Below are positions 1,925-27,464 of a DNA stretch of 64,000 nucleotides, in pieces. The position numbers and the translations under genes are program-made. The notes under the pieces were generated by a model. That model was not told the origin of the DNA. It made no database searches and saw only the letters and a program-made list of their open reading frames with translations. Source of the stretch: a virus (Duplodnaviria; Caudoviricetes); the IMG/VR virus record IMGVR_UViG_3300042484_001556, positions 2,123-66,122 of that record. One strand, written 5' to 3'. Positions within the stretch are counted from its first letter, which is position 1, and every line of letters starts with the position of its first letter.

Positions 1925-1973
1925 TATGAGGATAAATAAGTAGTATTAGATAATAAATTTTTTGAAAGATATT

Positions 1974-3050: not shown

Positions 3051-3171
3051 TAGCATAAGATAGTTATAGTGTGAGTAGGCATAACTTCATATGAATGGAT
3101 AAACTATAATAGATGCAATAATTTGATATTCTTTTTCATGTAATACTATTTAGTATCCAAATGTGGAATAT

Positions 3172-3179
3172 TATAAATA
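3172..3179 (+). promoter_or_regulatory. T4-type late promoter TATAAATA
   Basis: Exact gp55 consensus 25 bp upstream of the structural gene at 3204. Confidence 0.75.
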
Positions 3180-3203
3180 ATAGAGAGAATTTCTGGAAAA
3201 AGA

Positions 3204-6200
3204 ATGACAAAAGCAAGAGTATTTTCACAGGGCGGCGGCGGTTCAGCGGCAAATGCCTTAGCTAATATTAGTTTGGCGGACTTATCCGCCTTTCTTACTA
3301 CTGCTAACGTACGAGAAGTATCAAATCTTTATTACTCTAATAGTAGAGTATTTGCAAATTTATCATTAACTAGTATTAATGATTTATTTGATGTTGAAAC
3401 TAGAAGCAATACTGGTAATAGTTTAGCTAGTATTGGATATGGTTTAATTTGGACGGGTAATATTTGGACACCTGGACAAGTAGCAGCAAATCTTGCAACA
3501 CTTACTACGGATGATATAGCAGAAGGTTCAAATAACCTTTATTTCTCTAACGCCTTAGCTAGAAGAGCATTCACCGCAGGTACACCATCAATTGTAATTG
3601 ATTGGAATTTAGGTACCATCTCTGCAAACTTAACTGCTCTTGCAGCTTCCGCAAATACTACCGATTCTATACCGGAAGGCGCGGTTAATTTTTACTACCG
3701 CGATTCTCGCGCATATGCTAATTTAACTTTAGCGCATTTAGGTTCATTGCGTGATGTATATGTAACAGATGAAATTTATCCTGCAGGACATCCGAATTCC
3801 GGCAACATTATAGATGCTCATCCGAACGGTGGAGCATTAGTATATAATTCTGCAGCAGCAGCTTTCTTTGTAGAAAGAATTGTACCTACTGTTTCTGATC
3901 TTGCAAATGCTTTATCTAATTTAAATACAGATGCTCTATTAGAAGGCAGTAATAACTTATATTATAAAGATAATAGAGTTGTATCTAATCTAGCAAATTT
4001 AAGTATAAATGTATTTGCTGACGTAGATACCGTTAATACTGCACCTACATTAGGATACGTATTAACGTGGACAGGATCTGCTTGGGAACCTAGAGCTTCA
4101 AATATTGGTAACGTAGGCGTAATTTCTACCGCAACTAATGCAAATTTTGCAAATCTTGCAGGTATATCGAATGTAGCTTTAGTTGCAAATCAAGCAAACA
4201 TTGCAAATTTTGCAACACTTGCTGCAGTATCAAATTCTACAGTATTTGCGGAAAGATCAAATGTCGCAAATATTTCCTTATCTACAGTATTTGCGGAAAG
4301 ATCAAATGTCGCAAATTCTACGGTATTTGCAGAAAAATCTAATGTAGCAAATTTAGTATTATCCTTATCGAATTTTACTACTACGAATTTAGCAGAAGGT
4401 AGTAATTTATATTACACTGATAGTAGAGTATTTGCTAACGTATCGCAAATGAGTATTGATGCATTGTACGACGTTAGTACAAGCATAGCAAATGTGGGTG
4501 AAGTTCTTACCTGGTCTGGCACAAATTGGTATTCGGGTGCAACGGTAGGTGCAGCACAATCTGCACAATTTGCCGAAAGATCGAATGTAGCAAATTTAGT
4601 ATTATCCTTATCAAATTTTACCACTGATAATTTAACTGAAGGTTCAAATAATTTTTATTATACCTCAAATAAGTTAGCATCAGATATTCAGGCAGCAATA
4701 TATCGTAAAGATATAGAATTAGATGATTTAATTCTAGGTGGAGATTTAACAGTACAGGGTAATACTGTATTACTTAATGTTTCTAATGTAAAAACAGAAA
4801 GTAGAACACTAACACTTGCTTTAAATTCAGGTAGTCCTTCTAGTGCAGAAGGTTCTGGGATTTACATTGATGGCGCTAATGCTAGATTTACATACGGCCA
4901 AACAGATGACGGATTTGGTCTTAATAAAAATCTAACAGTTTTAGGTAACATCTTACCTGCAATCAGCGGTGTTTATAACATAGGTTCGCCTAGCAAATTA
5001 TGGCGCGGAATATATGTTGGTGCACAGACAATTTATTTAGGCAATTTAAGTCTAAGTGAATCTGCAGGTGGCGGCATACAAATACAAGATCAATATGGAA
5101 ATCCAGCCGGTGTTGATTTAGCAAATCTTGTAAGTACACAATTTGTTACTGTAAATCGTGTAGCATCAAATTCTACTACTGAGATTAATGGGTATTTCGG
5201 CGGAAACATACAGCAGTTTACTTCCGGTCAAACTGCAAATATTTACTTTGGTGTATTAAAAGATGGTACACTAAACAAATTCGCAGGTATGCGAATTACG
5301 GAAACGAAAGATATTGGATCAAATGTAAGAAGCGACATCCATTTCTACAATGATAAAGAAGGCACGGTTGATTCTACTGCAAGATTATCTTTATTAGGTA
5401 CAGGCAATATTGTACTTAATTCAAATCTTGTTACAATTAACGGCATTCGTTTAATTGATAATTTTGGTAATTTTGTTGGTAATGCGTATCTTGGTACTAC
5501 AGATGTAGCAATCGAACGTGGCGGTACTGCGGCAAACACTAGATCGGATGCAAGACGAAATATATTTTCGGATTTTTCTAATGGTCTTGTTGCAAAAATT
5601 GGAGGAGCAACAAATACGTTGGTTGCTGTTTCTATCGCGGCAGGTACAGGTGTTTATGTAACAGACGGTGATGCCCAATCAGGCAATCCTACTATTGCAA
5701 TTGGACAAAATGTTCATCCTACTGCATCAGTTACATTTAACAATGTAACCGTAGATGGTACATTAAATAGTAATGATATTACTGCGACAACTATTACTGC
5801 ATCGGGTGATTTAATTGTTTCGGGGAATTTGACTGTTCGCGGTAACGTAACAACAGTAAATTCAACAACCGTATCAATTAATGATAAAAACATTGTTCTT
5901 GCCAATAATGCAATAAATGCGGCAGAAGCAGATGGCGGCGGCATTACAATAAATGGTGCCAATGCAACATTCACATATTCAAATACCGGCGATAAGTTTG
6001 TAGTTAATAAGAATTTAGATGTTGCTGGAAATATTTCTAGTGTATATTCTATCTCTGCAGATAATATACAATTATCGGGCGATAAAATAACTGTGTTATC
6101 TGCGGTTGACGGCTCGCCTTCTTCTAATGCAAGTTTTATTATTAACCGAGGAAGTAGCACAGACGTAAGTTTAAAATGGGATGAAAGTATTGATAGATGG

Positions 6201-10967: not shown

Positions 10968-11309
10968 ATGGCAACCGCATTAAACGTATTTAAAACAGTA
11001 ACCGCAGATATTACCACTGAAGATAAAATTCTTTATACTGCCCCATCTAGAAAAACTTCTATTTTCTTATCGGTACAGGCAGCAAATTTAAACAATACTA
11101 CGGTACAGATATCTTTTTACCATGGATCCACTGCTAATGTAAAAACTGCTCTTGCTAAAGATTTCAAAATCCCAGGCAACGACTCTATGGCTATTATTAG
11201 TGCTGGTTCTAAATTGGTTTTAGAAACTGGGCAAAAGGTATATGCAAGTGCTAGCGCAAATAATGCAGTTCAATTATTAATGAGTGTCTTAGAATCAGCA
11301 AATGACTAA
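10968..11309 (+). CDS. ~110-aa beta-rich fibre adaptor-like protein (copy 1)
   Basis: Pattern LYTAP...SVQAAN...IPGNDS...KLVLETG is shared with 24326, 27135 and 47625. Confidence 0.6.
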   Translation: MATALNVFKTVTADITTEDKILYTAPSRKTSIFLSVQAANLNNTTVQISFYHGSTANVKTALAKDFKIPGNDSMAIISAGSKLVLETGQKVYASASANNAVQLLMSVLESAND

Positions 11310-12393
11310 ACTAATATCCGGCAGAGTTGCGAAAGTTCCTAGCTCGAATGTTAGTTCGGATCGTTACCAATTCTTAGATTTATCAGAAGCAGAACCAGAT
11401 TTAGGCCTTCCGCCTGAACGGGCGCATGTACTTACCTCAGATTTAAATGGATATCGAAGTTGGATTCAATTAGATTCCGGTAACGTATTAGAAAGTACTA
11501 ATCAATACTTTACGAATACTAGAGCTAGATCCGTATTCACGGCAGGAAAAGGTATCGCAATAAACGGAGATGGTGTAATTATAAACACCGGATCTTCGTT
11601 TGAATTCAACTTAGGTATAGATGGTTCAGGATATGGCAATGTGTTAAGTACCATGTCTGGTATATTAACAATCCCAAATTCTCCAGTAAACGACAGGCAT
11701 GTATTAAGATCGTTACATATCACAAATATTAGTAATCAAGACGCATTAATATCCGGTAATATTTTATATTCTACGGGCAATACTGCACTGTTTGCGAATA
11801 AGTTACCAGTTCCAGTTGGTGGAGCTGTTGAATTAATGAGAAATGTGCAATTGCTGCAACCAAATGATAAGGTAAATCTTCAAGGATTTGCCTCAGATGG
11901 TACAGCTACATCTAATTTGTTACAATCAATTTATACATATGAAACATTTGCGACGGATTTTTCTTATGTCGGAAACGGAATTACATTAGAAAATTCCAAT
12001 ACAAATATACAAATATATGATTCGGCGCAAGGTTTTAGTATTGTAGAAAGCATTAAGCTTGTAAATTTAGTAAATTCAACTGTTCCTGTTAAAGTATATT
12101 GGGGCGATGCAAATGGAAATCCTAAAGCATATTTAGCACATAATTTACCTATTCCGCCAAATTCTACGGTAGAAATAATAACGGCACCAAAAAGAATTGA
12201 ATTGAGTGATAAATTATATGCAAATTATACAAATGCTGATGCTGGAGCAGTTTCTGCATTTATTTCTGCTAGATTAGGTTCAGTATATTCAATCGCAGCA
12301 TACACACCGTCTGCTTCTTCGTCAAATACGTTCTTAGCTTCATTTACAACTACCGAAAATGACGGTACAGTTATATACTACTCAATAGAATAG
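11302..12393 (+). CDS. Fibre carrier protein, cassette 1
   Basis: C-terminal ~290 aa is paralogous to 14205 and 18713. Ends GTVIYYSIE. Confidence 0.65.
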   Translation: MTKLISGRVAKVPSSNVSSDRYQFLDLSEAEPDLGLPPERAHVLTSDLNGYRSWIQLDSGNVLESTNQYFTNTRARSVFTAGKGIAINGDGVIINTGSSFEFNLGIDGSGYGNVLSTMSGILTIPNSPVNDRHVLRSLHITNISNQDALISGNILYSTGNTALFANKLPVPVGGAVELMRNVQLLQPNDKVNLQGFASDGTATSNLLQSIYTYETFATDFSYVGNGITLENSNTNIQIYDSAQGFSIVESIKLVNLVNSTVPVKVYWGDANGNPKAYLAHNLPIPPNSTVEIITAPKRIELSDKLYANYTNADAGAVSAFISARLGSVYSIAAYTPSASSSNTFLASFTTTENDGTVIYYSIE

Positions 12394-12397
12394 AAAA

Positions 12398-14161
12398 ATG
12401 GCAACTATATTTCCTAAAAACTTTGCATCTAATTCCTTTACTGGATCGGTCGTTGTGCGCAACGGACATGCAAATGTCTTTCTTCCTACCAATCCATACG
12501 CATTAGAAGGAAATAAACAATTCGTAGTTAGATTAAGAAAAAATAGCACCAGTGGATTTATAGTTGCAACAAGTCCGCAAATGACTATTAACGATACAAG
12601 TACAGTTGTCAGTTTATCTGCAAATGTATCTTCTGTTGCAGAGGGCAATCTTGTAAGTTTTACACTTGTTACTGCTAATGCGATGAATGGCGCAGGTATA
12701 TTTTATTCCGCATATCCGGTAACAGCAAATTTAACTATATCCGATTTTTTAGGTGGCAACACTGGCGTTTTTCCTATAGTAAATAACCAAGCAACATTTG
12801 TTCTAAGGGCAAATACGGATGCTGGTCTTGTAGACGAGACCGGAGAAAAGTTTGGTGTTCAAATAAGAACAAATTCTGCAGTAGGCGACATCGTTTATTC
12901 ATCCTCAAATGTAGAAATATTAGATTTTTATAAAACTGTCAATGTAATAAGTTTTGTTGAAAACTATACTGAAATTGCAGAGGGATCGAATGTAACATTT
13001 ACAATTACTGCACATAATGCAAATGCCACAACTTTGTATTATTATACTTCAGGTAATGTGTTACCGTCAAATTTTGTGTCCGGAAATACTGGTTCTTTTA
13101 TAATATCTACAGGGACTCCCGTAGTTGTAAATTTACCAACCACATCAATTATACCAAACAACGTATCCCAATCCTTTCAATTGAATCTTAGTCAAACGGG
13201 TGTTGGAGGAGTAGCTATAGCAACTAGCAATGTTGTATCTATTGTGGATACGGCATTGGCATTTATCAATGCCACCGGCGGAAATGTTACTGTTGCAAAT
13301 GGGTATACCTCCCATAGATTTACCGATTCAAATATATTTAATATTACAAATTTGGGAATTGTTGCAAATCGAACTATTGAATATTTAGCAGTAGCTGGAG
13401 GCGGTGCTGGGGGTGTCGGTAGCACTCCGGAAGCTATGGGCGCAGGCGGCGGTGGCGCCGGCGGCATGCTAACAGGTACGTATACTGCAACTAATACTGG
13501 AATTAGTAACATTATAATTGGCGGCGGTGGTGCCGGCGTGTCAGTTGCATTTCCTGCTACTAAAGGTGATAACGGATCTAATACAACAATTACATCTCCA
13601 TATATTTCTATATTAGCGTTTGGGGGTGGTTCTGCCGGATATGTATATAACCCAGGGGTTGCGAACGGTAATCCTGGTGGATCGGGCGGCGCCGCTGGAC
13701 GAACCTATTTGGCGGCCGGCAGTGTAGGCTCCGGAGTACCAGGGCAAGGTAATCCCGGCGGCTCGTATAGCGACAGCGCAACTGAAGCCGGAGGGGGAGG
13801 AGGTGCCGGGTCAGCTGGAGAATCGGGAAGTCCTTCTCAGGTTCCGTCTGGATCATTTAGTGCCGCTGGTGGTGCAGGCGCAACCACACCATTTACTTCG
13901 GGTGAATATTTTGCAGGTGGCGGTGGCGCCGGTGCTTACCATAGCCCGAATGACGGCGAAAGATATCTAGGTCTTGGAGGTACGGGAGGTGGCGGTAACG
14001 GTGGTGGTTATTTCCCCGGAGATCCCAATGGATCGAATCGCGCTGCTCAAAGTGGAGGAACAAATACTGGCGGCGGAGGTGGCGGAGGTAAAGGTTTCGG
14101 CGGCGTACCTAGCGGAAGCGGTGGCAGCGGTATAGTAATTATTCGGTATCGTACTAGTTAA
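12398..14161 (+). CDS. Calx-beta/Ig-like repeats plus Gly-rich adhesin-like tip, cassette 1
   Basis: Two EGxxVxFT repeats, then EYLAVAGGG...GSGIVIIRY. Confidence 0.7.
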   Translation: MATIFPKNFASNSFTGSVVVRNGHANVFLPTNPYALEGNKQFVVRLRKNSTSGFIVATSPQMTINDTSTVVSLSANVSSVAEGNLVSFTLVTANAMNGAGIFYSAYPVTANLTISDFLGGNTGVFPIVNNQATFVLRANTDAGLVDETGEKFGVQIRTNSAVGDIVYSSSNVEILDFYKTVNVISFVENYTEIAEGSNVTFTITAHNANATTLYYYTSGNVLPSNFVSGNTGSFIISTGTPVVVNLPTTSIIPNNVSQSFQLNLSQTGVGGVAIATSNVVSIVDTALAFINATGGNVTVANGYTSHRFTDSNIFNITNLGIVANRTIEYLAVAGGGAGGVGSTPEAMGAGGGGAGGMLTGTYTATNTGISNIIIGGGGAGVSVAFPATKGDNGSNTTITSPYISILAFGGGSAGYVYNPGVANGNPGGSGGAAGRTYLAAGSVGSGVPGQGNPGGSYSDSATEAGGGGGAGSAGESGSPSQVPSGSFSAAGGAGATTPFTSGEYFAGGGGAGAYHSPNDGERYLGLGGTGGGGNGGGYFPGDPNGSNRAAQSGGTNTGGGGGGGKGFGGVPSGSGGSGIVIIRYRTS

Positions 14162-14167
14162 GTAACA

Positions 14168-14174
14168 ATAAATA
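14168..14174 (+). promoter_or_regulatory. Late promoter core ATAAATA; further copies at 18675, 22115, 26602 and 28624
   Basis: An ATAAATA core lies about 30-60 bp before the first gene of each fibre cassette. Confidence 0.6.
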
Positions 14175-14204
14175 ATAGAGTATAAAATAAAGTAAAGTAT
14201 AAAA

Positions 14205-16847
14205 ATGCCAATAATTAACAAAGGTGTATTTGATATAGATTCAGTTTACCTACGAGAAGTAGGTAACGATTGGCCTACTGCTCAGGTGATAACAACATCT
14301 GATGTAATTGAAACTACAAATCAATATTTTACTAATGCTAGAGCAGTTGTTGCAGTAACGCCATTATTGACTACTGCAAACGTAATCGAAACTGCAGGAA
14401 ATTTATATTTCACAAATGAACGAGTCGCTGCAAACGTAGCCAATTTATCTGTTGGCGCATTATTTGATGTTATCATAAGCGGAAATTTAGAAACAGGTCA
14501 GGCCCTGGTCTATAGTAGTAATGCTAATGCATTTATTCCAATTTTCGTCAATAGCGAGGTTGCAAATGTAGCAGATATTGCAGGTAGAGTACTTTCATTA
14601 GAAAATCAAACTACTGCTAATGTAAGAGAGGCAAGTAGTAATTTATACTTTACAAATACTAGAGTATTAGATGCAATTTCATTGGCAACAATTAATCCTA
14701 GTAATATTAATGTACAGAATATAGTTGTTGATGTAATAACAGCAAATACATGGAATAGATTATATTCATCAAATGTTATAGAATTTAATAATTTATTCTA
14801 TACAAATTCAAGAGTTATATCTGCAGTAACACCAATATTGACAACTGCAAATGTTGTAGAATTGGACAATTTATATTTTACAAATACCAGAGTTATATCT
14901 GCAGTAACACCACTATTGACAACTGCGAATGTTATAGAATTAGAAAACCTATTCTATACAAATTCAAGAGTTATATCTGCAGTAACACCAATATTGACAA
15001 CTGCAAATGTTGTAGAACTTTCAAGCAATTTATATTTTACAAATACTAGAGTATTAGATGCAATTGCATTTGCAGATATTACTAATACAAAAAATTTAAA
15101 TGCTTTAGGAAATATTGTTGCAAGAATAATTTTTGCAGATGCAGTTTACGCAAATACCATTACTTCAACCGGTATCATCTCAACTACTGCAGTATTTGAT
15201 TCTCTTATAGTAAATACAAATACTATATTTTACGGTGACGTAACAACATACGGGGCAAATAATTTATCCATTTCAGATAATATGATTTATCTGAATAATG
15301 AATCTACACAAACTAATCCCGACATGGGTTGGGTCGGCAATTACAATGACGGTAATTATGGGCACGCTGGATTTTTCCGAGATGCGTCGGATGGAATATT
15401 TAAGGTATTTGATAACTATACACTTGAGCCAGATGCAAATATTTTTATTGATACTGCTAATGTATCTTTTAGATTAGCGAATTTACAGGCTACAAATTAT
15501 TTTGGTAACGTAACCGGTTTTGTTACAGGGCAAGTAAGTAGTATAGGTAATCATAATTCAGACGCATTAGCAGAAGGATCAGTAAAACTTTACTATACAA
15601 ATAGTAGAGTAATTTCTGCAGTAACACCATTATTAACGACTGCAAATGTATCAGAGTTAACCAATCTATATTATACAAATGCAAGAGTTCTTGCAAATGT
15701 AGAACAGATGAGTATCAATGTTTTAGCTGATGTTGATATTACAGATGTTTCTGTTAATTCTGTACTTACATGGAATGGAACAAAGTTTGTTCCCGGAGCA
15801 ACAGATGTTGCATTACGAGCAAATTTTGCAAATACTGCAGGATCTGCCAATGTTGCATTACTTGCAGCTGTTGCAAATATTGCACTATTAACAAATTTTG
15901 CGAATGCTGTTTTATCTCTAAGTAACTTTACTACTGCAAATTTAGCAGAAGGCAATAATTTATATTTTACTAACACCAGAGCTAGATCAGCATTTACCGC
16001 AGGTAAAGGTATTGTTATACAAGATAACGGTACCATTAAAAATACAGGTTCTCCTCCAGAATACAATTTAAGTATAAATGGTACGGGTGGAGGAAACGTC
16101 TTAGGCGCAATGTCAACCTTAATTACATTTCCAAATGTGACTAATGACAGATATTTATTATCATCAATACATTTAGTTAATACTTCGAATGATACAGCTT
16201 TAATTTCTGGTAACATTTTATATGCTACAGGTAATACCGCAGTATTTGCAAATAAAATTCCTGTAGGGGAAGGAAGTGTCGTAGAATTTATTAAACGAGG
16301 CCAAATATTTCAACCAAATGATAAAATTAATTTGCAAGGATTTAATTCATCAGGTGTAGCCACCTCGAACTTAATGTCCGTAATGTATACTTATGAAACA
16401 TTTGATACTGATATAAGTTATATTGGACTCGGGCAAACTATTGCAACAAGTAACACGCAAACACAGATATATGATTCATCGCAATCATATAGTATAATTG
16501 AAAGTATAAAATTTGTCAATCTTTCTACGGGAAATACCCCTATTCGATTAGTGTGGGCCGACGCTAACGGTGTACCTAAAGCACATCTTGCATATAATGT
16601 TCAAATACCCGCAAATTCATCTTTAGAAATTTTGCAAAAGCCTAAAAGAATTGAGCAATATGATAAATTGTATGCATCGTATGCAAATGCAGCAAATGCA
16701 ACAATGTCGGTATTCGTATCTGCAAGAATTGGTGCCGCTTATACGATAAGTACTTATACTGCCGCAGCTATCCCAGGAAACACATTGTCACTAGCATTCC
16801 TCACAACCGACAATGAAGGTACATCACTATACTACACAATAGAATAA
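14205..16847 (+). CDS. Fibre carrier protein, cassette 2
   Basis: MPIINKG start, 26-aa repeats (TPxLTTANVxExxNLxxTNxRV) and the conserved C-terminal module ending GTSLYYTIE. Confidence 0.7.
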   Translation: MPIINKGVFDIDSVYLREVGNDWPTAQVITTSDVIETTNQYFTNARAVVAVTPLLTTANVIETAGNLYFTNERVAANVANLSVGALFDVIISGNLETGQALVYSSNANAFIPIFVNSEVANVADIAGRVLSLENQTTANVREASSNLYFTNTRVLDAISLATINPSNINVQNIVVDVITANTWNRLYSSNVIEFNNLFYTNSRVISAVTPILTTANVVELDNLYFTNTRVISAVTPLLTTANVIELENLFYTNSRVISAVTPILTTANVVELSSNLYFTNTRVLDAIAFADITNTKNLNALGNIVARIIFADAVYANTITSTGIISTTAVFDSLIVNTNTIFYGDVTTYGANNLSISDNMIYLNNESTQTNPDMGWVGNYNDGNYGHAGFFRDASDGIFKVFDNYTLEPDANIFIDTANVSFRLANLQATNYFGNVTGFVTGQVSSIGNHNSDALAEGSVKLYYTNSRVISAVTPLLTTANVSELTNLYYTNARVLANVEQMSINVLADVDITDVSVNSVLTWNGTKFVPGATDVALRANFANTAGSANVALLAAVANIALLTNFANAVLSLSNFTTANLAEGNNLYFTNTRARSAFTAGKGIVIQDNGTIKNTGSPPEYNLSINGTGGGNVLGAMSTLITFPNVTNDRYLLSSIHLVNTSNDTALISGNILYATGNTAVFANKIPVGEGSVVEFIKRGQIFQPNDKINLQGFNSSGVATSNLMSVMYTYETFDTDISYIGLGQTIATSNTQTQIYDSSQSYSIIESIKFVNLSTGNTPIRLVWADANGVPKAHLAYNVQIPANSSLEILQKPKRIEQYDKLYASYANAANATMSVFVSARIGAAYTISTYTAAAIPGNTLSLAFLTTDNEGTSLYYTIE
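14794..15017 (+). repeat. 78-bp-period tandem repeat; 68 bp identical at 14794-14861 and 14950-15017
   Basis: tattctatacaaattcaagagttatatctgcagtaacaccaatattgacaactgcaaatgttgtagaa occurs twice, with a diverged copy in between. Confidence 0.85.
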
Positions 16848-16848
16848 T

Positions 16849-18675
16849 ATGCCATTAACTCCAAGTAAATTTGCAACAAATTCCCTTTTTGGCACGACTT
16901 CCGTTCAAAATGGGTTTGCTAATATAATGTTAGATACGATACCCTACGCATTAGAGGGAAACGTAAACTTCGTTGTTAAATTAAGAAAAGGTAGTATTTC
17001 CGGCGACGTCATTGCTACTTCTCCAGTAATAACATTACAGGATTTAAGTTCAGTTATTAGTTTAACGGCAAATACCGCATCCGTATCTGAAGGAAGTATT
17101 GTAAGCTTTACACTTACAACCGCAAATGCTGCAAATAATGCAAACGTATTTTACTCTGTATTGCCGGTTACTGCTAACGTAACCAATTCAGATTTTTATA
17201 CTGCGAACACAGGTACAGTATCTCTTATTAATAATCAAGCAACGATTTCTTTATATGCAAACACCGACGCAGGTTATGTAAATGAAGATGGCGAAACATT
17301 TAAAGTACAAATAAGAACTAATTCTGTAACAGGTGACATTATCTACACATCTGCAAATGTTGCAATTGTAGATTTATATAAATTAGTTACTATAACAGGC
17401 GTTACGCCTAATAATGCATCTATAAATCAAGGTGCAAATATAATATTTACTGTTTCTGCACTAAATTCAAATGGAATAACTTTATTTTATTCCACTTCAG
17501 GTAACGTAAATTCTACAAACTTCATAGGTGGAAATACCGGTTCTTTTGTTGCGAATGCGACAGGCGGGTTAGTTGTATTGCAAAGTAATACCAACATACC
17601 GTTGAATGAGATACGACAGTTTGCCTTACAAGTTAATCAAACAGGATTTGCTCCTGTACCTAGTGCAAATGTTGTAATTTATGGGCCAATTTCATATATT
17701 GAAGCAACAGGTGGTACTGTAACTACTGCGGGCGGATACAGAACACACGCATTTACATCATCTGCGAATTTAGATGTTACCAGTTTAGGTGCAAGTACTA
17801 CTATTGAATATCTTATTGTTGCTGGTGGCGGTGGTGGAGGCGGTGGTGGTACTTCGAATATTCCGCCGTACTCAGGTGGTGGCCCCTACGGCGGTGGTGG
17901 CGGAGGCGGTGCTGGTGGCACATTTATTGGTAATGTTACGGTAGGGTTAGGCGGAACGGTTATTGTAGTTGGGGGCGGTGGCGCAGCGACATCACCAAAA
18001 AATAGAGCAGGATTTAATGGTACCGATACAACCATCGCGGTATTTGGGGGATCTACAATACTTGCATATGGTGGAGGTGGCGGTAGTGGTGTTCCAACAC
18101 CAGGCCCCATACCCGGCGCAGCATCTCCGGGGGGGTCGGGCGGTGGTACTGCACCAGATGCGGTGGCCGGCGCGGGAGGAGGAACTCCTGGGCAAGGATA
18201 CCCGGGAGCAGGTGGTATAAGTTGCGGCATAGCAGATAACTTAGGTGGCGGGGGCGGTGGTGCTGCGGAATCAGGAGTTAGTACAGATGGACCAAGTAAT
18301 AGTCCTGGTACTGCGACCCGCGGAGGAGATGGTATAGGTGTACCTTGGGTTCCGGGATCATATGGTACCCCTGGGCCTACACCAGGCGCAAGATATTTTG
18401 GTGGTGGCGGCGGTGGCGGTAATTCTCCTGTGGCGATGGCATATGACGTGCGCGGCGGTCATGGCGGTGGTGGAGCTGGCGGAAATTATTATTCACCCCC
18501 ATCCGGTGCATATGCAATAGGTAGGAATACTGGTGGTCGTGACGGGGGAGGATATGCAGATGGCAATACCGGCGGTGGCGGTGGAGGAAATGGTTCCGCG
18601 GGTGCATCAACCGGCACCGGCCAAGGTGGTCCTGGAGGTTCGGGTATTGTGATTATTCGTTACCCATACATATAA
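16849..18675 (+). CDS. Calx-beta/Ig-like repeats plus Gly-rich adhesin-like tip, cassette 2
   Basis: Paralog of 12398 and 20454. YRTHAFT...EYLIVAGGG...GSGIVIIRYP. Confidence 0.7.
   Translation: MPLTPSKFATNSLFGTTSVQNGFANIMLDTIPYALEGNVNFVVKLRKGSISGDVIATSPVITLQDLSSVISLTANTASVSEGSIVSFTLTTANAANNANVFYSVLPVTANVTNSDFYTANTGTVSLINNQATISLYANTDAGYVNEDGETFKVQIRTNSVTGDIIYTSANVAIVDLYKLVTITGVTPNNASINQGANIIFTVSALNSNGITLFYSTSGNVNSTNFIGGNTGSFVANATGGLVVLQSNTNIPLNEIRQFALQVNQTGFAPVPSANVVIYGPISYIEATGGTVTTAGGYRTHAFTSSANLDVTSLGASTTIEYLIVAGGGGGGGGGTSNIPPYSGGGPYGGGGGGGAGGTFIGNVTVGLGGTVIVVGGGGAATSPKNRAGFNGTDTTIAVFGGSTILAYGGGGGSGVPTPGPIPGAASPGGSGGGTAPDAVAGAGGGTPGQGYPGAGGISCGIADNLGGGGGGAAESGVSTDGPSNSPGTATRGGDGIGVPWVPGSYGTPGPTPGARYFGGGGGGGNSPVAMAYDVRGGHGGGGAGGNYYSPPSGAYAIGRNTGGRDGGGYADGNTGGGGGGNGSAGASTGTGQGGPGGSGIVIIRYPYI
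17251..17326 (+). repeat. 76-bp exact repeat, second copy at 20859-20934
   Basis: ttatatgcaaacaccgacgcaggttatgtaaatgaagatggcgaaacatttaaagtacaaataagaactaattctg is present in both tip genes. Confidence 0.9.
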
Positions 18676-18733
18676 TAAATAATAAAATGTTAAAACAAAG
18701 TAAAGTATAAAAATGCCAATAATTAACAAAGGT
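18672..18733 (+). repeat. 62-bp exact cassette-boundary repeat, second copy at 22112-22173, partial copy at about 14189-14232
   Basis: ataataaataataaaatgttaaaacaaagtaaagtataaaaatgccaataattaacaaaggt contains the stop codon, late promoter core and MPIINKG start. Confidence 0.9.
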
Positions 18734-20449
18734 GTATTTGACACAGGTGATGCATTCTATGGAGTTGACATCTCAGCTACTGATGCTGACACTACATTTG
18801 CATACTCAACCATTGGCGATAAATTTTTACTCAATAAGACGATTGACGTAGTTAAAGGCGATGTTAGAGCATCCGGCAATTTAATTGCAAATGGTTTAAT
18901 AATTAGAAACATATCCGTTTCTGATCAAGTTCTGTCGGGACAAATTATATCTGCAAACATATTAGCAGATAGTGTAACCGCAAATATTTGGAATAGATTA
19001 TACACATCAAATGTTGTAGAAAATACAAATCAATACTTTACTAATGTTCGTGTACTACAAGCAGTAACACCCGTATTAACCACTGCAAATGTTGTAGAAA
19101 ATACAAATCAATACTTTACCAATACTAGAGTATTAAGTGCCCTTGTAGGCGCAAATGTATCTGTAAATAATCTAATTGTATCCGGTGATCTTGAAGTTCA
19201 AGGTAATACAGTTACATTAAATACAGCAACACTAACAATTGAAGATAAGAATATTGTACTTGCCAACGGCGCGCCAAACTCGGCTGCTGCGGATGGAGCG
19301 GGTATTACAATTAATGGTGCTGACGCTACGTTTACATACGCAAATACTGGCGATAAATTTGTAGTTAATAAAACATTAGATGTAGTTGTAGGCGATGTTA
19401 TATCATCCGGCAATTTAATTGCAAATGGTTTAGTAATTAGAAATATAACGGTATCGGATCAAATCCTTACGGGGCAAGTTACTTCTGCAAACATACTAGC
19501 AGATATAGTAACTGCAAATATTTGGAATGGCCTTTATACATCAAATGTTGTAGAAAATACTAGTTTATATTTTTCAAATTCTCGAGCCAGAGCAGCGTTT
19601 ACCGCAGGTAAAGGTATTGTTATTCGAGGCGACGGTACTATACAAAATACTGGCGGCGCAGTAAATTATAACTTAGATATTGATGGTACGACAAGTGGTA
19701 ATATTTTAAGTACAATGTCTGCGATGTTGGCATTTCCGTCGATCCCTTCCACTGATAGATTTTTACTTCGTTCTATACACGTAGTAAATATATCAAATGC
19801 GCCAGCATTAGTTTCGGGTAATATTTTATATGCCACAGGTAATACGGCATTTTTTGGAAATCAAATACCAGTAATGGAAGGCGGCGTTCTTGAGTTTATG
19901 GACAAACCGCAGATATTTCAACCTGGCGATGTAATTAATTTACAGGGATTTGACAATTCAGGTACAGCAACATCGAATATATTAAGTGCAATGTTTACTT
20001 ATGAAACATATTCGACCGATCCATCGTTTGTTGGATTAGGTCAAACATTGACGACCAATGCTACAAATTACCAAATATATAATTCGGAACAATCCTCAAG
20101 TATAATTGAGAGCATTAAATTTGTTAATTTAGCTACAACGACTAATACAGCAAAATTATATTGGGCAGATGCAAATGGTATATTAAGAACTCATTTGGCA
20201 CATAATTTACCAGTACCTCCTAATTCTTCGGTTGAGGTATTAGTTCAACCCAAACGTATAAATTTTAAAGATACGTTATACGCAAGTATTCGAGATAATA
20301 CGAATATGTCGGTATTCGTATCTGCAAGATTGTCAGCAACATATACGATATCGGAAAATACAGGTAATGTTGCACCTGGCGGAACAGTTTCGACGGTATT
20401 TGTTACTACCGATACTGAAGGAACCACTTTGTACTACACAATAGAATAG
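18713..20449 (+). CDS. Fibre carrier protein, cassette 3
   Basis: MPIINKG start, an internal duplication of DKFxxNKTxDVVxGDV...NIWN, and a C-terminus ending GTTLYYTIE. Confidence 0.7.
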   Translation: MPIINKGVFDTGDAFYGVDISATDADTTFAYSTIGDKFLLNKTIDVVKGDVRASGNLIANGLIIRNISVSDQVLSGQIISANILADSVTANIWNRLYTSNVVENTNQYFTNVRVLQAVTPVLTTANVVENTNQYFTNTRVLSALVGANVSVNNLIVSGDLEVQGNTVTLNTATLTIEDKNIVLANGAPNSAAADGAGITINGADATFTYANTGDKFVVNKTLDVVVGDVISSGNLIANGLVIRNITVSDQILTGQVTSANILADIVTANIWNGLYTSNVVENTSLYFSNSRARAAFTAGKGIVIRGDGTIQNTGGAVNYNLDIDGTTSGNILSTMSAMLAFPSIPSTDRFLLRSIHVVNISNAPALVSGNILYATGNTAFFGNQIPVMEGGVLEFMDKPQIFQPGDVINLQGFDNSGTATSNILSAMFTYETYSTDPSFVGLGQTLTTNATNYQIYNSEQSSSIIESIKFVNLATTTNTAKLYWADANGILRTHLAHNLPVPPNSSVEVLVQPKRINFKDTLYASIRDNTNMSVFVSARLSATYTISENTGNVAPGGTVSTVFVTTDTEGTTLYYTIE

Positions 20450-20453
20450 AAAA

Positions 20454-22115
20454 ATGGCAACTATACTACCTAGTAATTTTACTTCGAATTCATTATCTGG
20501 ATCATTTACTGTTCAAAATGGTTTAGCCAATATAACACTTCGCACGGTTCCTTATGCATTAGAGGGGGACAAACCGTTTGTTATTAAAATTCGCAGAAAT
20601 GGTATAACCGGCGATGTTATTGCAACATCTCCGCCAATCGTATTACGAGATACTAGCTCTATTGTAAGTTTAACTGCAAATGTTTCATCTATAGCTGAAG
20701 GAAATCTTGTAAGTTTTACTTTTGTTACGGCAAATGCAACAAATAATGCAAATATATTTTATTCAGTATTTCCAGTAACAGCGAATTTAACATTGTCTGA
20801 TTTTTATGGTTCTAATGTAGGAATTGCTACATTAGTAGATAATCAAGCAACTTTCTCATTATATGCAAACACCGACGCAGGTTATGTAAATGAAGATGGC
20901 GAAACATTTAAAGTACAAATAAGAACTAATTCTGCTTCAGGTAACATTGTTTATACGTCATCTAATGTAGCAATATTAGACACATATAAAGCATTTAATG
21001 TATTCGGCTTTGTTGAAAGTATTTCTTCTGTGGTTGAGGGAGCTAACGTAACATTTACAATTACTGCACATAATGCGGATGCAGGTACATTATACTACTC
21101 TACTACAGGTAATGTTACAAGTTCTAGCTTCGTATCCGGTAATACTGGATCAGCTGTTGTTAGTGGTACTACTGCTACAATATTATTACAAACAACCTCC
21201 ACCGTGCCTGCCCTTGAAGAAAGAACATTCCAATTAAAACTTAGTCAGACATCGGCATTTGGACCAACCATAGCAACTAGCAACACGATAACTATAATAG
21301 ACTCTGCATTGGCATATATTAATGCAACAGGCGGCGATCTAGTTACTGTTGCTGGTGGTTACAAGACTCATAGATTCTATACTTCTAATGCATTAGTCAT
21401 TACTGGATTAGGTACTCCTGCAGGCAGAACACTTGATTATCTAGTTGTTGCTGGCGGTGGCGGTGGCGGTGGCGGACTATACGGTGGTGGTGGCGGTGGC
21501 GCTGGCGGTTTTAGAACAAGTGCAGTTACTGTCACTACTGCGGGGAATGTAACTGTTGTCGTTGGTGCGGGAGGGGCACAGGCGACTTATATCGCACCTG
21601 GTGCTTCAAGTATGTTTAGCGGAAATCCATCTTCAATCAATGCCCCATATGTATCTATTGATTCAGCTGGCGGCGGGCACGGCGGCGGTTATCCGGTCTC
21701 ACCTAGCGGCGCCGGCGGCGGTTCAGGTGGCGGTGGCGGACATTCGGCAACTTATCCCGCAGGTGGCGGTACTCCTGGTCAAGGAAATCCTGGCGGTATT
21801 CTATACGGCGGAGGTGGAGGCGCATCGGCTGCTGGTACGAATGGCGGCGCTGGTAGCGCCAACCCTAAGGGTAATGGAGGAGATGGTTCAACCACACCGT
21901 TTACTCCTGGCGAATATTTTGCAGGTGGAGGTGGCGGTGGCAAAGAAACGATGCCACAGCCCGCATCCGTTGGGTCGGGTGGATTAGGTGGCGGTGGACC
22001 TGGATTATCCGCCGCAACTGTTAATACTGGAGGCGGAGGCGGAGGCGGTGTACAATCAAATCCTTCTGGTGCAGGTGGTTCGGGTATTGTGATTATTCGA
22101 TATCCATACGCATAA
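20454..22115 (+). CDS. Calx-beta/Ig-like repeats plus Gly-rich adhesin-like tip, cassette 3
   Basis: Paralog of 12398 and 16849. YKTHRF...DYLVVAGGG...GSGIVIIRYP. Confidence 0.7.
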   Translation: MATILPSNFTSNSLSGSFTVQNGLANITLRTVPYALEGDKPFVIKIRRNGITGDVIATSPPIVLRDTSSIVSLTANVSSIAEGNLVSFTFVTANATNNANIFYSVFPVTANLTLSDFYGSNVGIATLVDNQATFSLYANTDAGYVNEDGETFKVQIRTNSASGNIVYTSSNVAILDTYKAFNVFGFVESISSVVEGANVTFTITAHNADAGTLYYSTTGNVTSSSFVSGNTGSAVVSGTTATILLQTTSTVPALEERTFQLKLSQTSAFGPTIATSNTITIIDSALAYINATGGDLVTVAGGYKTHRFYTSNALVITGLGTPAGRTLDYLVVAGGGGGGGGLYGGGGGGAGGFRTSAVTVTTAGNVTVVVGAGGAQATYIAPGASSMFSGNPSSINAPYVSIDSAGGGHGGGYPVSPSGAGGGSGGGGGHSATYPAGGGTPGQGNPGGILYGGGGGASAAGTNGGAGSANPKGNGGDGSTTPFTPGEYFAGGGGGGKETMPQPASVGSGGLGGGGPGLSAATVNTGGGGGGGVQSNPSGAGGSGIVIIRYPYA

Positions 22116-22152
22116 TAAATAATAAAATGTTAAAACAAAGTAAAGTATAAAA

Positions 22153-24324
22153 ATGCCAATAATTAACAAAGGTATATTTAATGTAAATTCTATTTATCTA
22201 CGAGATGTAGGTAACGATTGGCCTACTGCTCAAGTTATTTCTACTACTGATATAGTTGAGGGCACCAATGAATACTTTTCTAATTCAAAAGTGTATGCCC
22301 CTGCAGTTGTAGCGGTAACTCCGTTATTAACTACTGCAAATGTTGTAGAAACTACAAATCAATACTTTACCAATGTTCGTGTATCTCAGGTTATTGATCC
22401 AAAATTAACTACAGCAAATGTACTTGAAACTACTAATCAATATTTCACCAATGCGAAAGTTATTGCAACGGTTACTCCGTTACTAACTACTGCAAATGTT
22501 AATGAGTTAGGAAATTTATATTTTACAATTCCTCGAGTCTTTGAGGCGTTATCTTATGCAAATTTAGCCTTAAATAATTTAACACTTATCGGTGATCTTG
22601 AAGTACAAGGAAATGTTGTTACTTTAAACATTGGTACTTTAAATGTTGAAGATAAAAATATCTTATTGGCCAACGGCGCAATTAATGCGGCAGCTGCAGA
22701 TGGTGCAGGTTTCACAATTGCAGGTGCGCAAGCTAATATAGTATATCAATCCGCCGGTAATAAATTTTTAGTTAATAAAACATTAGATGTAATTATTGGC
22801 GATGTTAGAGCATCAGGTAATTTAATTGCAAATGGTCTAATAATTAGAAACATATCAGTATCAGATCAAGTACTTGCCGGAAATATTACGGGCACTTCTG
22901 TTACCGGTGCTAATATTTTAGCTGATAGTGTAACCGCAAATAGTTGGAATAGATTATATACTGCCAATGTAATTGAAACTGCCGGTAATTTATATTTTAC
23001 TACGCAAAGAGCAAGAGATTCATTTAGCGCCGGCGATTTTATCTCAATAACTAATGGGGTTATATCTGCTTCAGCAACAACTACTGTTGCAAATGATAGT
23101 ACTACAATACTAGCACAAGCGGATACGCTAAGTTATTCGATGGGCAGAACAATTTCTGATCCAAAAAACATATTAGTTGTAATTGAGGGATTATTGCAAT
23201 TACCGGTTACTGATTATGGTGTTACCGGATCTACGATAACATTTACAAGTCAGCCCCCAGTTGGGTCAAATATTGAAGTTAGATTCTTTGGTTCAGAATC
23301 GTTTACTACCTCATATCCTACATTAGTATCCACCGTGGATAGTTTTGTGGGTAACGGATCAAATGTAAATTATACGTTGTCCACAACGCCGGCGGGAATA
23401 AATTTTATTTCCGTTATTATAGATGGCGTGTTTCAACAAATTAATACATATACATTATCTGGCAAAACTTTAATATTATCCGAAGCCCCTAGTGCCAATG
23501 CAGATATTGATGTAAGAATAATTAGTGGCCCAGTAGGCGGGCAATATAACACCAGAACATTTGTTGGTGATAATACGACAAACACGTTTGTTGTTTCTTC
23601 TGGATTTACTCAAGATAGCATTTTAGTATTTGAAAATGGCATTGCCCAAGTACCAACTACAGATTATACTTATGATTTAGGTGTATTAAGATTTGTATCG
23701 CCGCCGGCAACGAATGTTGTTATACATATTAGAGAATTAAGTACAGCTGGGCCAAATCTTATTGCCGCTATACGAGGAACAGATATAGTAACGGGCAATT
23801 TAATACCAATTGCAGATGTTACGTATAATTTGGGTAGTCCTACCAAAAAATACAAAACTTTATATTTAAGTGCAAATACTATATTTTTAGGTAATAGTAG
23901 TATTAGTATAAATGACAATTCTATTGCAATTAGTTCATCGGGGCAAACTTCTACATTAGCTGTACAGGGACGGGATCTACAATCTAGTAATATTATACCT
24001 GAAACTAGCGGAATATCTACGTTAGGTAGCGATAATAAAAAATATAAAACTTTGTATTTGGAACCGGCTAATTCTTTGGTAATAGGTAATACTACTATAG
24101 GTGTTACCGGTACTTCATTATCCGTTAGCTCACCTATCAAATTAAAAAGTTATTCTACAATAGATTTAAATAGTTTAACTAGTTCTGTAGGAGATATAGT
24201 TTTTAATACTACTGTAGCAACAGTACAATATTACAATGGGGAATCTTGGGCTAACATAGGAGCATCCGCTTCTGGGGGTTCAGACAATAAAACAGTAGGA
24301 TACGCTTTAGTATTCGGAGGATAA
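22153..24324 (+). CDS. Fibre carrier protein, cassette 4, with three small beta-domain repeats
   Basis: MPIINKG start, three VxxxGxxQxxxxxY...PxxxxxIxxR repeats and a hydrophobic end KTVGYALVFGG. Confidence 0.65.
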   Translation: MPIINKGIFNVNSIYLRDVGNDWPTAQVISTTDIVEGTNEYFSNSKVYAPAVVAVTPLLTTANVVETTNQYFTNVRVSQVIDPKLTTANVLETTNQYFTNAKVIATVTPLLTTANVNELGNLYFTIPRVFEALSYANLALNNLTLIGDLEVQGNVVTLNIGTLNVEDKNILLANGAINAAAADGAGFTIAGAQANIVYQSAGNKFLVNKTLDVIIGDVRASGNLIANGLIIRNISVSDQVLAGNITGTSVTGANILADSVTANSWNRLYTANVIETAGNLYFTTQRARDSFSAGDFISITNGVISASATTTVANDSTTILAQADTLSYSMGRTISDPKNILVVIEGLLQLPVTDYGVTGSTITFTSQPPVGSNIEVRFFGSESFTTSYPTLVSTVDSFVGNGSNVNYTLSTTPAGINFISVIIDGVFQQINTYTLSGKTLILSEAPSANADIDVRIISGPVGGQYNTRTFVGDNTTNTFVVSSGFTQDSILVFENGIAQVPTTDYTYDLGVLRFVSPPATNVVIHIRELSTAGPNLIAAIRGTDIVTGNLIPIADVTYNLGSPTKKYKTLYLSANTIFLGNSSISINDNSIAISSSGQTSTLAVQGRDLQSSNIIPETSGISTLGSDNKKYKTLYLEPANSLVIGNTTIGVTGTSLSVSSPIKLKSYSTIDLNSLTSSVGDIVFNTTVATVQYYNGESWANIGASASGGSDNKTVGYALVFGG

Positions 24325-24325
24325 A

Positions 24326-24697
24326 ATGGCAGCACCCAATTTAATCGGCGCAACAACAATTAACGGAAAAACTTCCGGAATAAGTTTAACAACTACAGTA
24401 GCAACTACTGTATTAAATAATCCGGCAAGTTCTGGCAAATGCTTAAAAATTAATACATTAAATGTGAGTAATTATAGTGCTTCATCTGCAACTATAACGG
24501 TATCATACAACACTGGTGCTAATTTAACCGGTACATCATTTCAAATTGTAGCAAACGTAACTATTCCGTCGTATGCGACTTTGAATATTATTGATAAATC
24601 TAGTCAATATTATTTAGAAGAAAATAGATGTTTAGCTGCAACCGCAGGTACTGCAAATACAATAATATTAACTACAAGCTATGAGGATATTAGCTAA
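24326..24697 (+). CDS. ~120-aa fibre adaptor-like protein (copy 2)
   Basis: KINTLNVSN...IPSYATL...YYLEE...SYEDIS, same fold pattern as 10968. Confidence 0.6.
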   Translation: MAAPNLIGATTINGKTSGISLTTTVATTVLNNPASSGKCLKINTLNVSNYSASSATITVSYNTGANLTGTSFQIVANVTIPSYATLNIIDKSSQYYLEENRCLAATAGTANTIILTTSYEDIS

Positions 24698-25647
24698 TGG
24701 TTAAAAGGTATCAAGGTGGATTTATTTCTGCCACTAGAGCATCCACCTCTCTTTCCTCAGCAAGCGGAGTATATGACGCACTATCTACAGTTTCACAATT
24801 AAAAACTGCAGGTTATTGGCCAGGATCTTTATTTACCTTTGAAGTATTAATTGTGGGGGGCGGTGGCGGCGGCGGTGGCTGGAGACAATCCGGCGGCGGT
24901 GCTGGTGGGTTATTATATTATGGTAATAATACTACAACAAAAACACCAAATGGTCCAGAATTAACAGCAACAATTAATCAAGCATTTACTGTTACTATTG
25001 GATCGGGATCTAGTGGTACTTCTAGTGGCGCAACACAGGGTGGACATACTACCTTTGATGTATATACTGCGATAGGAGGGCAAGGATCTAATTATCGTGC
25101 GGCTGCAGGCGGTTCTGGCGGTGGAGGCCCGGGTGGCGGAAACTTAGGTAGCGGTGGTGCAGGCACAGCGGGTCAAGGTAATCCCGGCGGAACAAGTGTA
25201 TCTGGAGGTTGGGGCGGTGGTGGTGGCGCCGGAGCTGCAGGTGGTAGCGGAACTTCCCCTGCGACGGGTGGGGTAGGTGGGGTAGGTCTACAGTACAGCG
25301 AATTTTCTGCAGTAGGCGGCTCGCCCGCAGGATGGTTTGCCGGCGGTGGCGGTGGAGGAGCACAAACTAATGGTGGCATTGGGGGGTTAGGCGGCGGTGG
25401 AGCTGGCGGTACGCCCGCAACATCTGCAGAAGGACAAAATGCTATTGCTAATACTGGCGGAGGCGGTGGAGGTGACAGCGATATTCACCGTAGCGACACT
25501 GGAGGAAATGGCGGATCGGGAGTAGTAATTGTAAGTTACCGAGGTACGGTTGCGCGAGGAACAGGGGGAACAATTAGTACATCTGCTAGAACAAATTATG
25601 TTGTACATACATTTAATTCTTCAGGCACATTTACATTCACAGGTTGA
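24697..25647 (+). CDS. Gly-rich adhesin-like tip protein
   Basis: EVLIVGGGGGGG...GSGVVIVSY...YVVHTFNSSGTF. Confidence 0.7.
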   Translation: MVKRYQGGFISATRASTSLSSASGVYDALSTVSQLKTAGYWPGSLFTFEVLIVGGGGGGGGWRQSGGGAGGLLYYGNNTTTKTPNGPELTATINQAFTVTIGSGSSGTSSGATQGGHTTFDVYTAIGGQGSNYRAAAGGSGGGGPGGGNLGSGGAGTAGQGNPGGTSVSGGWGGGGGAGAAGGSGTSPATGGVGGVGLQYSEFSAVGGSPAGWFAGGGGGGAQTNGGIGGLGGGGAGGTPATSAEGQNAIANTGGGGGGDSDIHRSDTGGNGGSGVVIVSYRGTVARGTGGTISTSARTNYVVHTFNSSGTFTFTG

Positions 25648-27134: not shown

Positions 27135-27464
27135 ATGGCAACAACATACAAAGTTTTAGGACAAGTTAATCCCGCATCAAATACATTCACTACGCTGTAT
27201 ACGGTTCCGGCGGCAACAAGTACAGTTGTATCTACAATTAATGTGTGTAATCAAGGCATAGCTAACGATACTTTTAGAATTGCAATTAGGCCAGGCGGCG
27301 AAACATTAGTTCCAAAACATTATATATCTTTTAACACTGTGGTTCCTGCATATGATTCTATTAGTTTAACAGTCGGAATAACATTAGCTACAACTGATAT
27401 AATCACCGTGTATGCAAATGCATCTACAACAAGTTTTAATGTGTTTGGTTCGGAGATTAGTTAA
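27135..27464 (+). CDS. ~110-aa fibre adaptor-like protein (copy 3)
   Basis: MATTYKVLGQ...TLYTVPAA...VCNQ...SFNVFGSEIS; close paralog of 47625. Confidence 0.65.
   Translation: MATTYKVLGQVNPASNTFTTLYTVPAATSTVVSTINVCNQGIANDTFRIAIRPGGETLVPKHYISFNTVVPAYDSISLTVGITLATTDIITVYANASTTSFNVFGSEIS

Follow-up and report, generated by a model that had tools for sequence, protein, structure and literature searches.

A beta-sandwich domain cut between adjacent fiber genes as a probable joint between carrier and tip proteins in an uncultured large phage

We analyzed a window of 64,000 bases (the whole stretch considered here) of the 66,122-base linear virus record IMGVR_UViG_3300042484_001556, which is estimated to be 37% complete, and found three tandem cassettes at 11302-22115, each composed of a carrier gene and a tip gene, in which the gene boundary falls inside one small domain. 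Our preferred reading, to which we assign a probability of roughly three in four on the basis of sequence comparisons and structure predictions, is that each cassette encodes two separate virion fiber proteins, which are joined noncovalently by rebuilding one immunoglobulin-like (Ig-like) beta-sandwich. The carrier, which comprises a shaft and a domain of ~212 residues, would end with the first four strands of the sandwich (~37 residues; ...G-T-x-L-Y-Y-T-I-E). The tip would start with the other five strands (~66 residues; M-x-x-I-x-x-x-N-F-x-S-N-S-L-S-G...) and continue with two complete repeats of this domain, followed by a glycine-rich distal domain that presumably contacts the host. In the predicted structure, both sheets contain interdigitated strands from the two chains, and neither half would be able to fold alone, so that the joint would be made by cofolding.

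A profile of the six internal tip repeats (109 positions) was searched against the six carrier and tip sequences of the window. It recovered two full-length repeats in each tip, and the N termini of tips 1, 2, and 3 matched profile positions 42-106, 45-106, and 44-106 (E values of 8e-8, 1.6e-9, and 1.5e-5, respectively), which bears out the proposal of the initial annotation that each tip consists of two complete repeats preceded by the second half of a third. The carrier C termini were placed on profile positions 4-39, 14-38, and 7-38. We also used a broader profile (106 positions; 226 distinct full-length homolog repeats), to which the cognate halves, joined with an X at the break, align as a single domain from positions 2-5 to position 105. 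The joined halves of cassettes 1, 2, and 3 scored 52.7, 39.9, and 56.3 bits, compared with 42.2, 28.5, and 36.1 bits for the tip halves alone, and every shuffled carrier half (20 per cassette) scored lower than the cognate one (maxima of 41.4, 28.9, and 38.9 bits). The missing first half is thus the C terminus of the upstream gene, and the break falls in the same loop of the ~106-residue repeat in all three cassettes, both as originally proposed.

The joining of a carrier end with a tip start was modeled for one cognate pair (carrier 3, amino acids [aa] 295-578; tip 3, aa 1-180; own alignments), for which the interaction prediction score from aligned errors (ipSAE) was 0.72, 0.72, and 0.73, versus 0.00 for the best of three controls. 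In the calibration of the tool, 58 of 80 solved complexes and 2 of 110 mismatched pairs attain this ipSAE mark, which is a rough guide here, given the use of own alignments. The runs share at least 99% of their contacts, and the predicted local distance difference test (pLDDT) score of the partners is at least 82. As the initial annotation had anticipated, the pair is predicted to form one interdigitated sandwich. The predicted interface consists of the two half-domains, carrier 3 aa 542-578 and tip 3 aa 4-66 (interface residues 542, 544, 546-547, and 549-578 of the carrier and 4-66 plus 96 and 98-99 of the tip). Carrier residues Y574-I577 (YYTI) lie against tip residues 14-18 and 42-47, and carrier residues 559-564 lie against tip residues 24-29, so that both predicted sheets mix strands of both chains.

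The position of the break in the fold was taken from an AlphaFold model of a fused relative (alignment of 20), which is confident over residues ~92-515 (block means mostly 70-90), with a whole-model pLDDT of 58.8 and values under 50 in the glycine-rich part (residues 599-778). The break common to the three cassettes (site A) lies in the loop that follows strand four of the nine (298-303, 307-309, 313-321, and 328-337, then 350-354 onward), and a second cut site found in relatives (site B, described below) lies in the loop at 477-484, after the sixth strand. Modeled alone, the uncut domain reached a pLDDT of 89.9 and is, as predicted, an Ig-like beta-sandwich. Its structural alignments (VIA-align) with intimin D00-D0 (6tqd_A; Z 9.9, root mean square deviation [rmsd] 2.6 Å, 94 aligned), NCX1 CBD1 (3gin_A; Z 9.7, rmsd 3.0 Å, 104 aligned), and the MG domain of alpha2-macroglobulin (2p9r_B; Z 9.7, rmsd 2.5 Å, 91 aligned) are tied. 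The name Calx-beta, under which the repeat had been annotated, is not adopted here: no Pfam hit to PF03160 (Calx-beta) was obtained at E <= 0.1 in the three tips and three carriers, and a precomputed PF03160 hit is present in just 3 of 117 tip homologs (P0105, P0114, and P0116). A Foldseek search with the uncut domain gave nothing at E <= 0.001 (Calx entries at ~2e-3; a pilus assembly entry at rank 38 among generic Ig-like matches), one with the whole fused model gave generic multisandwich matches alone (rmsd above 20), and the repeat profile found nothing better than E 0.26 among PDB sequences.

Conservation of the cut and probable pairing of carriers with tips

The cut at site A recurs throughout the homologs of both genes. 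With the carrier domain as query, 136 hits were obtained; of the best 120, which were examined, 118 end in register at ...YY(T/S/K)(I/L/V)(E/R), nearly all of them at ...YYTIE, the remaining 2 being fragments. When residues 1-300 of tip 3 served as query, 117 homologs were retrieved, of which 94 start no more than 3 residues from the same position (M-P/A-I-x-x-S-N-F-x-S-N-S-L-S-G). The other 23 are either fragments or proteins with differently called starts (6 hits, namely P0038, P0049, P0050, P0079, P0092, and P0094) or distant homologs with whole internal repeats (17). N termini at profile positions 39-41 were found in 138 of 398 sequences (392 homologs and the six of the window), and both halves remain in register down to ~31-45% identity among homologs. 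Among 201 proteins with a carrier-domain end, the cut at site A is present in 161, whereas 37 are fused across it, 20 of these running on and 17 ending at site B; 2 have no half-domain, and 1 has another arrangement. The census drew on the best 150 of 2,532 profile hits. Many tip homologs of ~940 aa (P0002, P0006, and P0029 among them) hold the repeat(s) and the glycine-rich module twice in one chain; proteins of this size were considered as candidate fusions and rejected, as they start at the half-domain.

Uncut relatives, in which the fold is seen whole, were also identified. In locus L002, a cut cassette (92-1750 and 1755-3431) is followed by an uncut gene for an 819-aa protein (3469-5928), which runs from the carrier domain through an intact first repeat and a second repeat to the glycine-rich domain and reads ...GTQVYYEVSTVVGNITQADFVSNLSG... 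across the cut. A search with this uncut junction region led to 28 hits, 22 of which cover the junction at 99-100%; homologs in which the two genes are fused, for which the initial annotation had proposed a search, thus exist, and the domain is uncut in at least 22 protein clusters. One cluster (P0260) is the cut form of a fused type (P0240). A profile of the fused forms found no relative among 185,579 prokaryote species genomes.

Site B is a second cut, which falls one repeat farther on, at profile position 69/70. In seventeen clusters not cut at site A, the protein stops at profile position 69-70 (...TYTLVLTTTG), and the N terminus of four proteins lies at positions 70-72, with the sequence MPIP(D/N)NETR... 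in three. The two site-B genes adjoin in a single contig (IMG/VR contig locus L031; 2326-4077 and 4087-6348), which was the only one returned when further site-B junctions were sought in viral contigs. The upstream gene ends with ...GNTYTLVLTTTG inside repeat 2, the downstream gene starts with MPIPDNETRFFQLQIR, and the spacer between them (TAA GGAGTAGAA ATG; 9 nucleotides [nt]) holds an AAGGAG-like Shine-Dalgarno motif. Two proteins (P0296 and P0304) that start with MANA... at profile position 25 may represent a third cut or miscalled starts. Some carrier relatives (L031:6383-8074; cluster P0225) have a cupredoxin-like insert, which is odd for a fiber shaft and is named "plastocyanin" by the sources; the source names seen for 6 clusters were "hypothetical protein" or "plastocyanin" throughout.

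To compare the divergence of the gene parts, Mantel tests were run on the pairwise segment identities of 19 related carrier-tip pairs (2,000 permutations). The tip half was correlated with the carrier domain (rho of 0.62, p of 0.0005) and with the carrier half (rho of 0.50, p of 0.0005) and not with tip repeat 1 (rho of 0.00, p of 0.50). Between cassette 3 and the cut cassette of L002, identity is 99% in the carrier domain, 97% in the carrier half, 94% in the tip half, and 77% in tip repeat 1. Because the tip half codiverges with the carrier and not with repeat 1 of its own protein, the evolutionary unit of exchange appears to begin past the split domain rather than at the boundary between the genes, and such a module boundary fits one structural unit made from two gene ends. 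The codivergence argues for matched carrier-tip pairs over freely exchangeable tips, so that the original proposal of tips exchangeable among carriers finds no support, and we infer from it a matched (orthogonal) pairing of the three window cassettes, with which their divergence (34-61% identity among the carrier halves and 54-58% among the tip halves) is compatible.

The alternative that best survives these comparisons is that the half-domains are relics of gene fission that no longer pair, the tip being held in some other way or forming a separate fiber and the halves being disordered or repurposed. It gains from the weak match of the carrier halves to the repeat profile when these are taken alone, from a cofold that rests on prediction, and from two other glycine-rich proteins in the window (24697-25647 and 27464-28591) that have no half-domain. 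A relic would decay, whereas the two halves stay in register down to ~31-45% identity (118 of the best 120 of 136 carrier homologs and 94 of 117 tip homologs) and codiverge. In the complex prediction, moreover, they share one sandwich, the controls scoring 0.00, and the second, independent cut site follows the same logic. We therefore regard the relic explanation as unlikely.

Several points weigh against a noncovalent joint by a rebuilt sandwich. The carrier halves are weak matches alone, both to the repeat profile (E values of 0.18, 0.72, and 4e-4) and to the broader profile at Z = 1000 (E values of 0.056, 0.1, and 0.0011). The ipSAE is the model's own confidence and may merely reflect two pieces of one fold, the Mantel tests ignored phylogeny, and the protein sets were biased by the choice of queries. 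The existence of fused relatives means that the cut is dispensable for the domain, it is the spacing by itself that suggests translational coupling of the tip to the carrier stop, and, if the carrier is a trimer, three tips per fiber would need to fit. On balance, the locking of carrier and tip by fragment complementation, as put forward in the initial annotation, is favored by the conserved cut, the fused relatives, and the predicted cofold, and the free exchange of tips attached to that proposal is not. A wider generalization is possible, with the odds somewhat against it: split sandwiches might be general self-sorting fiber connectors, with several paralogous, coevolving pairs in one virus (three here), each tip going only to its own carrier in a cell that makes all of them, and with a domain that keeps its function whether it is cut at site A, cut at site B, or left uncut.

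Translation of the two genes

We compared the junctions of loci L001-L030 and of the window (metagenome and viral contigs), which comprise 22 distinct sequences. The tip begins with ATG at the same residue in all 22 junctions, and its frame relative to the carrier is +1 in 16, 0 in 4 (L015, L017, L018, and L022; GAA TAA AAA ATG), and +2 in 2 (L019 and L025). The spacers are A-rich and 1 to 14 nt long (1 to 4 nt in the window), the 14-nt spacer of L025 containing more stop triplets. The tip had been described as always lying in the +1 frame, which holds for all three window cassettes and fails in the relatives. Ahead of the stop, the codons used for Y, T, and I/L differ among the junctions (TAT/TAC; ACA/ACC/ACG/TCA; ATA/TTA/TTG), and these synonymous changes indicate conservation at the protein level rather than of an RNA signal, with no slippery site kept. 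Sequence comparison by itself shows that the cut is conserved, that fused relatives exist, that the frame varies, and that the ATG is constant.

In the window, the junctions read GAA TAG AAAA ATG (cassettes 1 and 3) and GAA TAA T ATG (cassette 2). Stop, spacer, and the first 12 tip bases are identical between cassettes 1 and 3, and the window thus holds two junction variants, not three; the earlier statement that stops and spacers differ among the cassettes is correct for cassette 2 only. The junction 1 sequence is identical in four other loci (L003, L004, L005, and L012). None of the three window tips is preceded by a Shine-Dalgarno-like motif, as is also the case for 28 of the 45 gene starts in the window. 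With the tip cistron 1 to 4 nt past the carrier stop, translational coupling would supply the two proteins in equal amounts and in proximity.

Recoding, i.e., a +1 frameshift, stop readthrough, or a ribosome hop, would instead give one fused carrier-tip protein. All three window tips do lie in the +1 frame 1 to 4 nt past the stop, and a single chain is viable, judging by the fused relatives. However, frames and spacers vary across the 22 junctions, and a single recoding event is insufficient for three frames, whereas termination and initiation at the conserved ATG, the residue at which 94 of 117 tip homologs begin, serve all of them. The sequence ATA GAA creates a +1-frame TAG immediately ahead of the stop, so that a shift would be possible on GAA-stop alone, and +1 re-pairing on AAU after such a slip is not expected. 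A constant frame, a slippery site, and a dispensable start, the hallmarks of a programmed +1 frameshift, are all missing from the 22 junctions, and the site-B spacer carries an AAGGAG-like ribosome-binding site. The frameshift that had been named as an alternative is therefore rejected, and recoding in any form is very improbable. That sequencing or assembly errors or pseudogenes broke single fiber genes, an explanation favored by a stop inside a domain and by nothing more, is close to inconceivable, as was maintained from the start, given the identical cut position in three diverged window cassettes and in 22 distinct junctions from independent contigs, the cut shared by >100 protein clusters on either side, and the conserved start codons.

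Layout of the cassettes and neighboring genes

The first ~35 kb of the window is a long one-strand run of fiber genes, which is followed by replication genes. The open reading frames of the three cassettes (Table 1) have the coordinates given in the initial annotation. Alignment showed that a C-terminal region of ~330 aa is common to carriers 1, 2, and 3 and that the three tips share the N-terminal 67 residues, two repeats of ~110 residues, and the glycine-rich end. Carrier 1 matches PHROG 8745 ("tail fiber protein"; E 3.9e-6). The Pfam domain Gly_rich_2 (PF21722) was detected in tip 1 (E 2.9e-19; aa 323-585), which also matches PHROG 2295, and in tip 3 (E 3.2e-21); tip 2 matches PHROG 2295 (E 2.6e-29), and its Gly_rich_2 match is just E 0.023, under the Pfam cutoff.

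Table 1. Features of the three carrier-tip cassettes in the window
Feature	Position	Strand	Description
Carrier 1	11302-12393	+	363 aa; N-terminal fiber part, ~212-aa conserved carrier domain, then predicted first half of split sandwich
Carrier 1 half-domain	12277-12390	+	Last 38 residues, ending ...GTVIYYSIE; repeat-profile positions 4-39 (broader profile 2-38)
Junction 1	12391-12400	+	TAG, spacer AAAA, ATG; tip frame +1
Tip 1	12398-14161	+	587 aa; second half-sandwich (aa 1-67), complete repeats (aa 69-178 and aa 179-290), glycine-rich domain
Carrier 2	14205-16847	+	880 aa; 26-aa (78-nt) repeats in a long shaft, carrier domain, predicted first half-sandwich
Carrier 2 half-domain	16731-16844	+	Last 38 aa
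Junction 2	16845-16851	+	TAA, spacer T, ATG; tip frame +1
Tip 2	16849-18675	+	608 aa; second half aa 1-66, two repeats, glycine-rich domain
Carrier 3	18713-20449	+	578 aa; shaft, carrier domain ~aa 295-540, predicted first half-sandwich
Carrier 3 half-domain	20333-20446	+	aa 541-578
Junction 3	20447-20456	+	TAG, spacer AAAA, ATG; tip frame +1
Tip 3	20454-22115	+	553 aa; second half aa 1-67 (20454-20654), repeat 1 (20658-20987), repeat 2 (20988-21320), glycine-rich domain

Several repeated elements accompany the cassettes. A 113-nt direct repeat (18627-18739 and 22067-22179; 93% identical) flanks cassette 3 on both sides, covering the tip end, the intergenic leader, and a conserved MPIINKG start; a third copy (14119-14231) is 65% identical. 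This repeat could promote the duplication or exchange of cassettes through recombination. The leader ...aaagtaaagtataaaa before the ATG is common to carriers 2 and 3 and the next fiber gene (14180-14204, 18688-18712, and 22128-22152). The shaft of carrier 2 contains the tandem 78-nt repeats at 14718-15058 (...TTANV-E--NLYFTN-RV-SAVTP-L...), single copies of which are present in carrier 3 and in the next fiber gene.

The window also encodes three small proteins of 109-123 aa (10968-11309, 24326-24697, and 27135-27464), each with its end at, or past, the start of the following gene. Two of the three align with the second half of the carrier-domain profile (E values of 5.4e-10 and 4.8e-7 at Z = 1000; the third, just 0.41), and two precede the glycine-rich proteins at 24697-25647 and 27464-28591, which have no sandwich repeats or half-domain. 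The small carrier-like proteins may be an alternative way to pair a carrier-like unit with a glycine-rich protein.

Implications and relation to known systems

Multiprotein fiber assembly is known for few model phages, and a joint that can be read from sequence would predict fiber partners in uncultured phages. The signature is that one gene ends and the next begins inside one small fold, with uncut relatives proving the fold. The codivergence result suggests that the host-range module begins distal to the split domain instead of where the two genes meet; if true, everything distal to the joint would be the unit of host-range exchange. The domain also offers a natural series (uncut, cut at A, and cut at B) for studies of gene fission and cofolding, and, should the three pairs prove to be specific, they would be natural orthogonal split-domain pairs ("protein Velcro") for protein engineering.

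Comparison with phage genomes revealed few relatives. A megablast search of 11302-22115 against 50,697 phage records and a tblastn search of tip 3 gave no match, and carrier 3 had 5 weak matches (26-29% identity), including Synechococcus phage S-SKS1, the sole cultured-phage relative of the carrier domain that was found. The S-SKS1 homolog (L038:3039-4145; NC_020851), which was also the first match in a BFVD search with the fused model (E 6.9e-15), ends right after the carrier domain without a half-sandwich, and a 2OG-Fe(II) oxygenase gene follows it. No description of a fiber joint made from a domain split between two genes was found in the literature searched, most subscription journals lying outside that search.

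Among nonphage systems, chaperone-usher pili (Fim and Pap) have an incomplete Ig-like fold that is completed by a strand of another polypeptide, resulting in a very stable noncovalent joint. Pilins lack one strand, the last, which is supplied by the next subunit or by the chaperone, and they polymerize. In the cassettes, by comparison, the cut lies near 40% or 65% of the fold (site A after strand four of nine and site B after strand six), so that more than the last strand is lacking, and there is one joint between two different proteins. No chaperone or usher was seen, no dedicated search having been made. The analogy with donor-strand complementation drawn in the initial annotation therefore applies insofar as an Ig-like fold would be completed by a second chain and does not extend to a single donated strand, as ~4 and 5 strands would be contributed. 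In the MG6 domain of complement C3, one Ig-like sandwich is made of two chains after processing of an already folded precursor; an MG domain (2p9r_B) is among the best fold matches here, and, unlike those of MG6, the two chains come from two genes.

With respect to gene layout, the cassettes resemble the long tail fibers of T2/T6/S16-type Straboviridae, in which Gp38 forms the tip of Gp37, to which it is attached by an N-terminal domain through an electrostatic joint, and carries host recognition (PMC12032242). In both cases, a separate protein with a glycine-rich distal domain is encoded just downstream of the fiber gene, the glycine-rich part of Gp38 being a polyglycine sandwich; each tip gene follows its carrier gene, and Gly_rich_2 is present in tips 1 and 3 (under the cutoff in tip 2). 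The likeness is one of gene order and glycine-rich content, and the proposed joint differs from that described for Gp38 in being a shared split domain.

With respect to the type of joint, a solved precedent is provided by BppU and BppA of Lactococcus phage Tuc2009, in the crystal structure of which part of one protein completes a beta-sandwich sheet in the other (PMC4742702). Two separately made adhesion-device proteins are thereby joined through sheet completion, an arrangement that is predicted here for the cassette 3 pair. Tuc2009 is a siphophage of a Gram-positive host, and the present virus is an uncultured large phage. In Tuc2009, a small domain that is otherwise complete receives a hairpin, whereas ~4 of 9 strands are predicted to interdigitate with the other 5 here, and relatives of the present system have uncut versions of the domain. 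Sheet-completion joints between phage adhesion proteins are thus already known, and a joint from one domain split between two genes would be a variant of them.

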